Shown: one piece after another, positions 165-36,827 of the stretch | Position numbering within the stretch: the stretch's first letter is position 1 | How the letters are laid out: every line of letters starts with the position of its first letter | Source of the DNA: Firmicutes bacterium UBA4881 | Lineage (GTDB): Bacteria; Bacillota; DTU065 | NCBI GenBank assembly: GCA_002399235.1 | Contig: DHDH01000001.1 | Location: 97,366-161,365, forward strand | Length of the DNA: 64,000 bases | Reading direction: 5' to 3' | Program-made: the position numbers and the translations under genes | Notes under the pieces: generated by a model | What the model saw: only the letters and a program-made list of their open reading frames with translations | Told to the model about the DNA's origin: nothing | Databases searched by the model: none

Positions 165-425
165 ATGGAAGTACTTAAAGTTTCTACAAATTCCACCCCT
201 AAATCTGTTGCTGGTGCTTTAGCTGCTGTTTTAAGAGATAAAGGTACTGCTGAATTGCAAGCAGTGGGTGCGGGGGCAGTTAATCAAGCTGTAAAGGCTA
301 TTGCAATTGCTAGAGGTTTCGTAGCTCCTAATGGTATTGATCTGGTTTGCATCCCTGCATTTGCAGAGATCGAAATCGACGGCGAAGAGCGCACAGCAAT
401 CAAATTCATTGTTGAGCCCAGATAA
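165..425 (+). CDS. spoVS: Stage V sporulation protein S (SpoVS)
   Basis: 86 aa with near-identity in pattern to SpoVS (MEVLKVS...AIARGF...ERTAIKFIVEPR). RBS AGGAGG precedes the ATG. Confidence 0.9.
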   Translation: MEVLKVSTNSTPKSVAGALAAVLRDKGTAELQAVGAGAVNQAVKAIAIARGFVAPNGIDLVCIPAFAEIEIDGEERTAIKFIVEPR

Positions 426-4700: not shown

Positions 4701-5268
4701 GCGTTATAGTTTCCTCTCTACCCAAATTAACGATCTTGTTGAGGCCAAAACGGATCTTTTAGAGGTGTTAGCAAAATTAGATAAAGCAAGCAGAGAACGC
4801 TTTCAAGAAGCATTTCAAGAGATTAAAGCAGAATTTGAAAAGCTATATAAAGTACTTTTTGGGGGAGGAGAGGCTACCCTCGTCTTAGAAGAAGGCGATC
4901 TTCTTGAAGCAGGTGTTGATATTAAAGCACAACCTCCAGGGAAAAAATTACAGAATATTGTACTTTTAAGTGGAGGAGAGAAAGCCTTAACGGCAATTGC
5001 TCTCATCTTTGCTGTGCTTTGTGTTCGCCAAGTGCCATTTTACCTATTAGACGAGATAGATGCACCTTTAGATGAGGCCAATTTAGAGCGTTACGGCTAC
5101 CTCATTAAAGAGAAGGCCAAGACTTCGCAGATCATTCTTATAACCCATAGACGTCGCAGTATGGAGTCAGCTCACCTTCTCTATGGTGTAGCCATGGAAG
5201 AAAAGGGTGTAAGCAAGATTCTTACCCTACGTCTCGAGGATGAGCAAGCAGCGATTGCTACAGAATAA
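1714..5268 (+). CDS. smc: Chromosome segregation protein SMC
   Basis: N-terminal Walker A (GPNGSGKSN), long coiled coils, a hinge, and C-terminal signature [16 protein letters not shown] plus Walker [11 protein letters not shown]. The true start is ATG 1714 ([14 protein letters not shown]), downstream of the ORF-track start. Confidence 0.95.
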
Positions 5269-33156: not shown

Positions 33157-34104
33157 ATGCATCTTGTTTTAATCACAGGTAGCATGGGATCAGGAAAAAC
33201 TTTAGTACTAAAAGAACTTTTTCTTAAACTTTTAAATAAGTACAAAACAGTCTTAATGGTACATGAAGCTGGATGTATCGGTATGGATGCAGCTTTTTTA
33301 GCACAAAACAATATTCCTGCACTTAACTATTCTTATTGTAAGGTTGCAGAAGATCCAGGGCAGACATTTATGTACAACCTCGAGAATGCTAGACAAAAAT
33401 TCAATCCAGATATTGTTTGTGTGGAAATAACTGGCAATGTAGCTACACCTGTAGTTATTAAAGAAGCTAAAAAGAGAGATTCCAACATACAGATACAAAC
33501 TGTTATCTATGTTCTCGATGCTACCAATTTTTTAAGTGAATATAGGAAAAAAAGAGAGTTCATCCAACTGCAAATAACCTGGTCTGATTATGTAATTATC
33601 AATAAAGAAGAACGGTTAAATTTGCACCAGAAAGAATCAATTAGAAAAATAATCAAGACCATTAATCCTGTTGCAACTGTTTTAGAGACTAGGTATGGGA
33701 TATTAACACGGGATTTGTTAGCCAAAATCGCTATCGACCTTCAATCTCCAAAGGGGTCTATTATTTATAGTACAGAAAATAATCAACTGGAAACTAAAAA
33801 ATCTCTTTGGACAAAAGGAACTGAAAACAAGATTCGCTGTGGCTTTTTATTTACCGAGGGATCAACAGATCCGAAAAAGATTACAAATTTCTTCTTACGG
33901 CATAAAGATAAGATTGTTAGGGCTAAAGGTAGATTTGTTACTGGTTATGGATTGTGTTACCTGCAGCTTAACCAAGGTAGTGTTGATTATCAGATTTTTG
34001 GGGTAGAAAAATTTTTCCATAATAAGAATATAGCTTCTTTACTGGTTCCTGCGGACTTCCAGGCTGATCTAAAACTGGAATTTATGGACTGCTTTGAGCG
34101 TTAA
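33157..34104 (+). CDS. CobW/COG0523-like G3E P-loop NTPase, lacking CxCC
   Basis: Walker A GSMGSGKT. The overall COG0523 layout is kept (VHEAG.IGMD, DIVCVEITGNVATP, NKEERL). The canonical CxCC metal site is replaced by SYCKV. Confidence 0.55.
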   Translation: MHLVLITGSMGSGKTLVLKELFLKLLNKYKTVLMVHEAGCIGMDAAFLAQNNIPALNYSYCKVAEDPGQTFMYNLENARQKFNPDIVCVEITGNVATPVVIKEAKKRDSNIQIQTVIYVLDATNFLSEYRKKREFIQLQITWSDYVIINKEERLNLHQKESIRKIIKTINPVATVLETRYGILTRDLLAKIAIDLQSPKGSIIYSTENNQLETKKSLWTKGTENKIRCGFLFTEGSTDPKKITNFFLRHKDKIVRAKGRFVTGYGLCYLQLNQGSVDYQIFGVEKFFHNKNIASLLVPADFQADLKLEFMDCFER

Positions 34105-35330: not shown

Positions 35331-35561
35331 TTGGCTCTAAAACTAAGTAAAAATGCACAAACTGTTTTAGAAAAACGTTATCTGATGAAAAAAGATGGAC
35401 AAGTAGTGGAGACCCCGGAGGACTTATTTAAACGTGTAGCAGCTAATATTGCAGAAGCAGACAAACTCTACGATGAGAATGCAGATGTGGAAGCTAAAGC
35501 TGCTAGGTTTTACGAAGTGATGACTGAATTGAAATTCTTACCTAATAGTCCCACTCTGATG
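35331..35561 (+). CDS. nrdJ: Class II (B12-dependent) ribonucleotide reductase NrdJ, exon 1
   Basis: NAQTVLEKRYL...FLPNSPTLM is the NrdJ N-terminus. The reading frame breaks exactly where GTGCG begins. TTG start with a GGAGG RBS. Confidence 0.85.
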
Positions 35562-36827
35562 GTGCGCCAAGATAGTTAGCAGGTAGCGCCGGGCAAGCCG
35601 GTACGAAACTCGGGACAGGTTTCGTTAGAGATCTGCTTACCCATTAGGGGACAACAGCATGCACGATCTCTAGGTACCACAAGGCCAAAGCTGGATTGCT
35701 TGAACTCTAGTTCTACTGGATCAAGTGGGGATCTGCTAAGGCATCTGGCTGTAAAGAAGAGTATTCATCGATTCTTCTTTAGTCCCGAAGCCAGACAGGG
35801 TATCCTAAACTTAATAAGTTTTCGATACTAAAAGAACGAACGGAGAGCCTAAATGGTACAATTTATCTGACTAGCGAACTTGGGATAGGTTTTTGTCAAA
35901 AAACCTACGGAGCTCTCATAGTAGTCAAGGCGGTAACACCGTCCTAAAGGCGAAGGGGAGCAGGCCAGTTGGTAATAAAGAAGCGGAGGTATGCGTAATG
36001 CAAGATAGCCTCGTTGTCTTGAATTGCCTAGAAAAGAGTTCTGCAAACAAAGTTCTTCAGAGAGTCTATAGACAACTATTTAACTTAAATTTCTATGGAA
36101 CAAAAGGTCAGGAGATTGTAGCAGCATTAAAAAAAGAAAGTTATCGTCAACTACCTACTGCGCAATTAAACGAACTAAAAGCAGTAGTACAAAAGATTTT
36201 ATCAGTTGTCTTTGCTGCTAAATTTGCTGAAACAGGTATTTATAAAGAGTTAAAAGGACAGTGTTTACCAGCTAGCTTAGTAGAAAAACCTGAAGAGATA
36301 CTGGTAAAACGTATCGCTGATGGACGCTGGTGGCAGCTGTATAATTTTTTACGTCCCTGGCGTATGTATCTGCCCCAAGAAAAGTTACTTATTTGGGACG
36401 AAAACTTTTATAGATGGCTACCAGATGATGGAACTATTTATAAGATAGATCTAGCAGGGTTTACTTGGCAACTAGGTAAGATAACACTGCAAAGCTCTTT
36501 TAAAACCACACTACTTAAACCATACCTGCGGTATGGGAAACCTTTACATCGAAGCGGTCTCCTTAACCTACCAGAAAAGGTAATTATTGCCACTTACAAG
36601 GCGGAAGAGTCTCGGTTTCGGCAGATTTTATCTGTTCTAACCGAACCTAAGAAAGAAGCTGAGATGCTCTATCTTTTACGGCAGAGTCTCTTAAAAACCT
36701 TAGCTTGTAAATATAGAACATCGACACGTGATATTGAAGAACGTTTTGAACTTTTTTGACACTGGCTGGAGAGCCGTATGCTTCGAAAGATGCACGTGCG
36801 GTTCGGAGGGGGGGAAACCTACCCTAC
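35562..36827 (+). mobile_element. Group II intron 1 in nrdJ, encodes a maturase-only protein
   Basis: 5' GUGCG at 35562. Domain V GAGCCGTATGCTTCGAAAGATGCACGTGCGGTTCG at 36771-36805. A G-rich domain VI with a bulged A and a 3' CUAC. The flanking exons join in frame as ...SPTLM|NAGREL.... Confidence 0.85.
35998..36759 (+). CDS. Intron-encoded maturase-like protein (domain X only, no RT domain)
   Basis: Carried in intron 1. The C-terminus [21 protein letters not shown] matches the maturase domain X motif (as in MatK, ...SLARTLARKHKST). No YADD or other RT blocks are present. ATG 35998 has a GGAGG RBS. Confidence 0.6.

Follow-up and report, generated by a model that had tools for sequence, protein, structure and literature searches.

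Degenerate intron proteins that serve splicing only are textbook knowledge for chloroplasts and mitochondria. The locus described here is bacterial: a 253-amino-acid (aa) protein is encoded in the first of two group II introns that split nrdJ, the gene for a class II (B12-dependent) ribonucleotide reductase, into three exons. It lies in a 64,000-nucleotide (nt) stretch of DNA from Firmicutes bacterium UBA4881 (assembly GCA_002399235.1, contig DHDH01000001.1, positions 97,366 to 161,365 of the forward strand), to which we refer as the window. The closest known cases are O.i.I2 of Oceanobacillus iheyensis and MatK. Degenerate intron proteins have been described as typical of organelles, and O.i.I2 is the sole bacterial case listed in the 2015 review by Zimmerly and Semper (PMC4424553). 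Its protein belongs to the mitochondrial-like (ML) class, resides in radC, is devoid of YADD and of other reverse transcriptase (RT) motifs, has kept its frame open and is presumed to be maturase-only (PMC4424553, section 9). For the full-length maturase LtrA of Ll.LtrB from Lactococcus lactis, the N-terminal extension anchors on DIVa, a part of domain IV (DIV) that contains the Shine-Dalgarno sequence and the start codon, such that translation is autoregulated, and its fingers-palm and thumb contact domain I (DI), both being essential for splicing (PMC7641739). Group II introns in a bacterial nrdJ also have a precedent in the RIR (nrdJ)/dnaN case of Trichodesmium erythraeum, where one intron-encoded protein assists related introns lacking an open reading frame (ORF), and trans-splicing was demonstrated experimentally (PMC12584367, PMC4424553, PMC4143802).

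We regard it as probable that the 253-aa protein descends, in miniaturised form, from a full-length RT/maturase of a group II intron of the mitochondrial-like (LtrA) type, and that it works as an RT-dead splicing maturase. Its C-terminus had been assigned to domain X in a preliminary description of the locus, and this assignment has held up. In a profile-profile comparison by hhalign with eight full-length proteins carrying RVT_1, Intron_maturas2 and AI2M-HNH, residues 170-251 (the C-terminal ~80) matched with a probability of 99.3% (E 1.6e-20), and a search of the Protein Data Bank (PDB) returned LtrA as the sole significant sequence match, at the N-terminus as well as at domain X. By these measures, which are joined by remote profile matches discussed below, the C-terminus is a genuine domain X/thumb, with a similarity far beyond chance. 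Searches with single hidden Markov models bear the assignment out in part: Pfam reported Intron_maturas2 alone for the window protein (E 0.0016, 18.8 bits, under the cut-off of 20.8 bits), and the orthologue P0004 is above this cut-off with 22.8 bits. A single-sequence search of the PDB yielded nothing meaningful, and a search of the protein against NCBIfam gave no match.

The view that the protein is a free-standing domain X with no other RT block did not survive. Residues 1-119 are colinear with positions 1-192 of the full-length proteins (hhalign 97.6-98%, E 4.5e-12 to 3e-13). The segments that are kept are the RT0 helix, the helix opening RT1, RT2 and the tail of RT3, and those deleted are the RT0 loop, the RT1 strand (IPK..G..RPLG), RT2a (HGFRP) and the RT3 aspartate. 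Further on, residues 122-253 align with positions 341-481 (hhalign 98.5%, E 1.5e-15), which places EKLLIW on the EKTxIT motif of RT6; residues 112-185 on their own give no significant match to RT6/7 (probability 8%). About 150 residues are gone, comprising RT4, the RT4a insertion and RT5 with YADD. As read from these alignments, the N-terminal two thirds of the protein are a conserved RT-derived scaffold of N-terminal extension and fingers helices. The extent to which RT sequence is missing had therefore been overstated, and the proposal of a splicing-only, immobile and domesticated element otherwise stands.

The catalytic parts are lost, as had been noted for YADD and the endonuclease (En) domain. 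No YADD, PQG or RPLG motif was found in the protein, Pfam gave no RVT_1 match for the 253-aa form or for a 288-aa form extended upstream to 35893, and neither Pfam nor NCBIfam matched an HNH or En domain, the protein, which is devoid of a DNA-binding (D) domain as well, stopping 10-15 residues past domain X. Extension of the frame thus does not uncover a complete RT palm. Since the RT3 aspartate, PQG of RT4 and YADD of RT5 are deleted and En is absent, the protein, to judge by its motifs, cannot act as a reverse transcriptase or an endonuclease. Retention of domain X together with the purifying selection described below makes a splicing-only role the best reading, in agreement with the earlier suggestion of a protein that aids splicing and not retrohoming, and the fact that the regions by which LtrA contacts RNA are retained leads us to propose an RT-dead maturase. 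Structure prediction is weakly supportive of a kinship with RTs and LtrA. An AlphaFold model from a 4-sequence alignment was unusable (mean predicted confidence, pLDDT, 47), and one from 22 sequences including full-length relatives reached a pLDDT of 65.5, with residues 1-76, 98-119 and 181-253 modelled confidently and residues 120-180 unreliable even then. The top Foldseek matches of this second model were RTs, and the best PDB match was LtrA in a ribonucleoprotein (RNP; probability 0.96, E 0.03).

How does the protein compare with its closest counterparts? With O.i.I2, taken from its published description, it has in common that a group II intron of Bacillota interrupts a housekeeping gene and encodes an LtrA-type protein without YADD, and a relative of the window protein in Metalysinibacillus jejuensis is likewise next to a radC fragment. 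The window protein differs in its 253 aa (the relatives of the O.i.I2 grade found here have 330-420 aa), in the complete loss of RT4-RT5, in its host gene nrdJ and in the presence of an ORF-less sibling intron. MatK is also a degenerate intron protein that has conserved domain X and given up RT activity; encoded within an essential gene (the chloroplast trnK intron), it is vertically inherited and serves several introns (PMC4424553). However, MatK aligns with RTs over motifs 5-7 and X and is unalignable over 0-4 (PMC4424553), whereas the window protein keeps vestiges of 0-3 together with X and has 4-5 deleted, and MatK is plastid-borne and about twice as long. The retention pattern is thus opposite to the organellar, MatK-like state that had been invoked. 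Nor does the protein belong to the MatK family proper by its sequence features, having no Pfam match to MatK_N, blocks 0-3 in place of 5-7, and nrdJ and not trnK as host. LtrA, the only solved structure matched by sequence and the top structural match, resembles it further in that the Shine-Dalgarno sequence and start codon lie inside a DIVa-type element in both and that the delta-delta' pairing, read by eye, is IIA-like. But LtrA has 599 aa, is an active RT with DNA-binding and endonuclease domains and is mobile, and the window ribozyme is much more compact than that of Ll.LtrB. As to Trichodesmium, the cyanobacterial helper is described as the RT of a full-length intron (PMC12584367), whereas the helper in the window would be RT-dead and its trans action is putative. 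On present sequence evidence, the window protein is a new and extreme variant of the already known degenerate, maturase-only intron proteins.

The ORF is the only sizeable one on the sense strand within intron 1, and its extent from ATG 35998 to TGA 36759 is as previously given; antisense ORFs of 51-88 aa in the intron are without support. A GGAGG Shine-Dalgarno sequence is located at 35985-35989, 8 nt upstream of ATG 35998, and the homologues, of 253-261 aa, all open with MQxSLV, which argues that ATG 35998 and not TTG 35893 is the real start. The candidate start at TTG 35893 (288 aa, 35 additional codons) was rejected: it adds no Pfam match, overlaps conserved RNA of domains II and III (DII/DIII), and no orthologue starts there. 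In the L014 orthologue (L014 3125-3127), the start codon is GUG instead of AUG. Within DIV, the ORF starts 35 nt past the 5' strand of the domain, and its stop codon abuts the 3' strand. In the L001 (5763-5774), L002, L010 and L014 lineages it is four codons longer (FDAD/FEAD) and continues across the basal stem's 3' strand, such that protein-coding and RNA-pairing constraints overlap there. The proteins are basic throughout (pI 9.2-9.6).

Both introns occupy identical nrdJ positions, beside the same neighbouring genes, in six syntenic loci from uncultured Bacillota, in a block of DJ-1/PfpI, SpoIID, nrdJ, a sugar-phosphate isomerase-like gene and a LysM hydrolase. These represent six lineages: the window; L006/7; L001, which equals L009 (a metagenome-assembled genome, MAG, of Bacillota); L002-5; L010 (another Bacillota MAG); and L014. 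Five of the six loci entered the analysis of the deep-split divergence. At the deepest split analysed, NrdJ is 85% identical with synonymous sites saturated, and the intron protein is 51-56% identical. In unsaturated pairs, the ratio of nonsynonymous to synonymous substitution rates (dN/dS) of the intron protein is 0.13-0.31, in the N-terminal 170 residues and the C-terminus alike, and the third codon position varies about 2-3.5 times more than the first two. The ORF length of 253-261 aa is held down to 51% identity. These comparisons document a protein kept under purifying selection in both halves. One may object that massive internal deletions are what a decaying relic should look like, i.e., a non-functional leftover of a deleted RT gene in an intron that splices without any intron-encoded protein; a ribozyme as compact and well conserved as this one might self-splice, and there is a bacterial intron, C.te.I1, without an intron-encoded-protein-related gene in its genome (PMC4424553). 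But a relic would hardly have remained intact and equally long across six lineages in which 44-49% of residues differ and synonymous sites are saturated, nor would it display this dN/dS in both halves and an excess of changes at third codon positions. Intron 2, furthermore, shows the fate of an ORF that is not needed, which is to be gone. We therefore consider the relic explanation very unlikely and retain that of a functional, RT-dead maturase.

The same loci bear on the mobility of the intron. The dN of the intron protein is approximately 3 times that of NrdJ in shallow and deep pairs, with the same lineage grouping, and this tracking fits vertical co-descent. The orthologue comparison establishes vertical inheritance at a fixed nrdJ site, as judged from these alignments, and supports the idea, already put forward in the preliminary description, that intron 1 is immobilised and domesticated: it occupies the same nrdJ codon beside the same neighbours in six lineages, and its divergence parallels that of NrdJ. 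Could the shared site instead reflect repeated homing, with the full-length RT of a related intron elsewhere providing retrohoming in trans? Only 64 kb of DNA are visible, and related proteins without YADD occur in other host genes (radC, the noc-soj region), which requires some past mobility. Yet the divergence of both protein and ribozyme follows that of NrdJ with the same grouping of lineages, each copy recovered occupies the nrdJ site and shares its synteny, and there is no second copy within the window. Continued mobility is, to our minds, extremely unlikely, and we take intron 1 to be domesticated.

The ORF is surrounded by a canonical group II intron whose ribozyme is intact in sequence. 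Excision of 35562-36827 and 37422-38351 produces an in-frame NrdJ of 747 aa, which aligns with Thermotoga maritima NrdJ (1xjk) without a break at PNSPTLM|NAGREL and NPCGEQ|PLLPYE (E 3.7e-131), and the only Rfam matches in the 64-kb window are to domain V/VI (RF00029, gathering score 40), at 36769-36827 (63 bits) in intron 1 and at 38257-38351 (67 bits) in intron 2. Both introns have GUGCG at the 5' end and AC at the 3' end, intron 1 reading GUGCG...CUAC. A consensus fold of the six intron-1 orthologues comprises 127 pairs, 14 of them with compensatory changes, and across deep lineages the 5' ribozyme is 85% identical, as compared to 75% for exon DNA. The 3' strand of the DIV basal stem pairs with CAGGCCAGU at 35961-35969, with one bulged G, and two compensatory changes between lineages (GCCAGU/ACUGGC versus GUCAGC/GCUGAC) prove, by covariation, the predicted stem that encloses the ORF. 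The pairings of the exon-binding sites (EBS) with the intron-binding sites (IBS) and the delta-delta' pairing were read from the sequence by eye. In intron 1, the delta U pairs with the first base of exon 2 (A), an IIA-like arrangement by this by-eye reading, and in both introns the base preceding EBS1 can by eye be paired with the first base of the 3' exon, as in IIA introns. None of the Rfam D1-D4 class models matched the intron at a permissive threshold, so that the class is not assignable by Rfam; the assignment to IIA/ML on account of the delta-delta' pairs read by eye and the protein relatives is tentative.

The preliminary description had overlooked intron 2, the ORF-less sibling of intron 1, which probably depends on the 253-aa protein. 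It splits nrdJ within the active-site codons (NPCGE|QPLLPYE region) and was located at this site in five loci, and no orthologue has a stop-free stretch of more than 82 aa in it; a tblastn search found no remnants of the intron-1 protein in intron 2 or the rest of the window. Because a global alignment of the two introns is uninformative, they were compared via local blocks, and blastn finds colinear blocks in domain V (DV; 86%), DIII (90%) and DI (73-93%), identifying intron 2 by sequence as a distant paralogue of intron 1. Among six intron-1 and five intron-2 copies compared, a 15-nt core, AGGUAUGC-NN-AA-N-GCA, is invariant at the start of DIV in 6/6 and 5/5, respectively, even though the intron-2 DIV around it (~270-430 nt) is unalignable between lineages, with 0-35% invariant columns. 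In most copies the element is predicted to fold into a small UGC/GCA hairpin inside a GAGG/CCUC-type stem, with the intron-1 start codon in the hairpin loop. A ribosome-binding site that is conserved without its gene amid decaying surroundings is best explained as a protein-binding site, though its putative binding function is inferred by analogy to LtrA (PMC7641739).

As the same element is retained in intron 2, which has no ORF, it is probable that this intron is also spliced by the protein, in trans. The competing possibility is that it helps intron 1 alone, that intron 2 self-splices or uses another factor, and that the intron-2 element is RNA-structural or a relic. LtrA-type maturases act preferentially in cis, and the two introns are merely distant paralogues, both of which would argue for such a restriction. 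Against it stands the core that is invariant in 5/5 intron-2 copies while the surrounding ~270-430 nt have become unalignable, since a relic should have decayed along with them, and Trichodesmium offers a bacterial precedent for an intron protein that acts in trans on related introns without an ORF (PMC12584367, PMC4424553). We thus see action in cis only as possible but rather doubtful, and favour a maturase that serves both introns.

The scenario that we propose for the 253-aa protein runs as follows. It would be translated from the pre-mRNA or the excised intron and, with the parts left to it (helices of the N-terminal extension and the fingers, then a short beta region, then the thumb, i.e., domain X), would bind the hairpin AGGUAUGC...GCA that bears its own Shine-Dalgarno sequence and start codon; because the bound hairpin holds these signals, the protein may repress its own translation in an LtrA-like manner. 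By stabilising the active fold of the ribozyme, it would allow intron 1 to be spliced and NrdJ to be made, and intron 2 would probably follow in trans, while intron 1 would no longer be able to retrohome. Alternatively, the protein could owe its conservation to a role in the host outside splicing, for instance in controlling nrdJ expression or in chaperoning RNA generally. There are group II-like RTs that have taken on other cellular roles through domestication (PMC12337344), and the location inside nrdJ would couple expression to the synthesis of deoxynucleoside triphosphates. This is quite unlikely in our estimation, as the protein keeps the regions that contact intron RNA in LtrA, the ORF is still in DIV with its start codon in a DIVa-like hairpin, and all members of the close family were found at the nrdJ locus only.

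Comparative analysis establishes the homology of both halves of the protein, the loss of the catalytic motifs, the selection, and a ribozyme that covaries and is intact, its EBS/IBS pairings and branch-point A included; binding, help in splicing and trans action are deduced from these data. Several points count against an RT-dead maturase of two introns. The compact ribozyme might self-splice, and a full-length RT/maturase outside the visible 64 kb could serve both introns. The conserved intron-2 element could serve an RNA structure unrelated to protein binding. The Pfam match to domain X is below threshold for the window protein itself, and the IIA/ML assignment, with its by-eye pairs, its reliance on protein relatives and its lack of an Rfam D1-D4 match, is a weakness as well.

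The protein does not stand alone. A word-indexed search of 5.8 billion proteins returned three clusters at 90, 54 and 53% identity, and an exhaustive search of 1.84 billion representative proteins with the family profile added two further close relatives (P0004, 261 aa; P0005, a fragment) and 121 remote matches (best E 1.2e-10). The latter are reached nearly all via residues ~165-252, which in those scanned with Pfam correspond to the Intron_maturas2 region of proteins of 330-610 aa. A second word-indexed search with a mixed alignment retrieved, among the matches listed, mostly full-length proteins and one intermediate. In the list of remote relatives (P0006-P0126), YADD is absent from 45 of the 51 that are N-terminally complete and at least 300 aa long, each representing one 50%-identity cluster; 31 of these 45 have no RVT_1 match and 39 have Intron_maturas2. 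One of the YADD-less relatives matches Pfam MatK_N (E 5.7e-06). In the alignment, proteins of about 600, 505, 330-420 and 253 aa form a graded series in which deletions in RT0 and RT1 are shared; among the YADD-less intron proteins, most of which carry no annotation as such, the window protein is the one reduced furthest. The statement that such proteins are uncommon in bacteria thus agrees with the literature of 2015, with O.i.I2 alone, but sits poorly with 45 of 51 relatives lacking YADD, and RT-dead intron proteins may be far more common in bacteria than published accounts say.

All named YADD-less members belong to Bacillota (Metalysinibacillus jejuensis, Ca. Wallacebacter cryptica and MAGs). 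P0120 (370 aa, YADD-less, RVT_1-negative) resides in a bona fide group II intron (L012 4001-5213, also in L013; Bacillota MAG GCA_040756655.1) with RF00029 at 5124-5213, located between a parB-like (noc) gene and parA/soj in a gidA-gidB-noc-soj-spo0J block, and thus adds a second housekeeping region in which an intron bears a degenerate protein. P0046 (365 aa, YADD-less) lies ~530 nt downstream of a 163-aa RadC fragment on a contig of the M. jejuensis type (L011 2977-5098). M. jejuensis has a second such protein, P0007 (377 aa), and the names given by NCBI are 'hypothetical protein' or 'reverse transcriptase/maturase'.

What would this mean? We put forward tentatively, and with somewhat less than even confidence, that a natural minimal maturase of ~250 aa serves two introns and marks the extreme of a large unrecognised set of RT-dead maturases that are kept vertically in housekeeping genes. 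If so, a few helices of the N-terminal extension and the fingers plus the thumb would suffice to drive group II splicing, here of two introns, and introns with RT-dead maturases, apparently centred on Bacillota, would be stable in nrdJ, radC and the noc-soj region. Bacteria would then have their own counterpart to the domestication of introns in organelles and to the route from RT to Prp8, and the view that derivatives without mobility fail to persist in bacteria would be contradicted. In contrast to the literature, an RT-dead protein and its intron were inherited vertically over the time in which NrdJ diverged to 85% with saturated synonymous sites, and the ORF-less second intron of the same gene bears the same putative binding element. 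The 253 aa of RT0-RT3 helices and thumb would furthermore amount to a natural deletion map of what a maturase requires, useful for structural work on intron RNPs and for the question by what path the RT-like core of Prp8 turned into a scaffold for splicing. The search also brought up dozens of YADD-less relatives that lack annotation. Domestication of introns in bacteria may therefore be under-counted, since it is the RT ORF that surveys look for.

Table 1. Features of the nrdJ locus, with positions in the 64,000-nt window and residues for the protein layout.
Feature	Position	Strand	Description and basis
nrdJ exon 1, 77 codons	35331..35561	+	Pfam Ribonuc_red_lgN E 2.5e-22; spliced protein vs T. 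maritima NrdJ
IBS2 + IBS1, CCCACU|CUGAUG	35550-35561	+	last 12 nt of exon 1
Group II intron 1, 1266 nt	35562..36827	+	GUGCG 5' end; compact DI-DIII (~400 nt); DIV with ORF; DV; domain VI (DVI)
EBS2, AGUGGG	35724..35729	+	perfect complement of IBS2 CCCACU; hairpin loop of consensus fold; invariant in six orthologues
Loop with delta (U) and EBS1 (CAUCG)	35764..35771	+	loop of covarying hairpin; EBS1 pairs with IBS1 UGAUG
Intron 1 DIVa-like element GGAGGUAUGCGUAAUGCA	35985..36002	+	holds Shine-Dalgarno sequence and start codon; putative high-affinity maturase binding site
Intron-encoded protein, 253 aa, pI 9.6	35998..36759	+	ATG 35998, TGA 36757-36759; homology, selection, structure model
Protein layout	residues 1-119; 120-170; 170-253		vestigial RT0-RT3 helices; weak RT6/7 remnant; domain X/thumb
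DIV basal stem, 3' strand ACUGGCUG	36761..36768	+	pairs with 35961-35969, one bulged G
DV of intron 1	36771-36804	+	AGC triad and bulge; Rfam alignment, sequence
DVI of intron 1	36805-36827	+	bulged branch-point A at 36821, 7 nt from 3' splice site
nrdJ exon 2, 198 codons	36828..37421	+	ends in active-site motif NPCGEQ; Pfam Ribonuc_red_lgC E 5e-61; 1xjk alignment
Group II intron 2, 930 nt, ORF-less	37422..38351	+	RF00029 67 bits; DV 38259-38292; branch A 38345
Intron 2 DIVa-like remnant AGAGGUAUGCGCAAAGCA	38007..38024	+	same core; AUG replaced by AAG; no ORF behind
nrdJ exon 3, 472 codons plus stop	38352..39770	+	Pfam Ribonuc_red_lgC and TSCPD; 1xjk alignment

Some observations concern the setting of the locus. 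The frames of exon 1 and exon 2 close five codons into the respective intron (VRQDS* and VRKLA*), at stop codons 35577-35579 and 37437-37439, so that ribosomes on unspliced RNA would terminate at the intron start. Rfam found no tRNA or rRNA in the 64-kb window, and its GC skew is above 0 in nearly all 2-kb bins, the cumulative skew climbing monotonically. A gene of the CobW family (G3E GTPase) occupies 33157-34104, flanked by the DJ-1/PfpI-like gene and spoIID and just upstream of the B12-dependent nrdJ; it is present at that place in the window and the L006/7 lineage and absent from the L001, L002 and L014 lineages.

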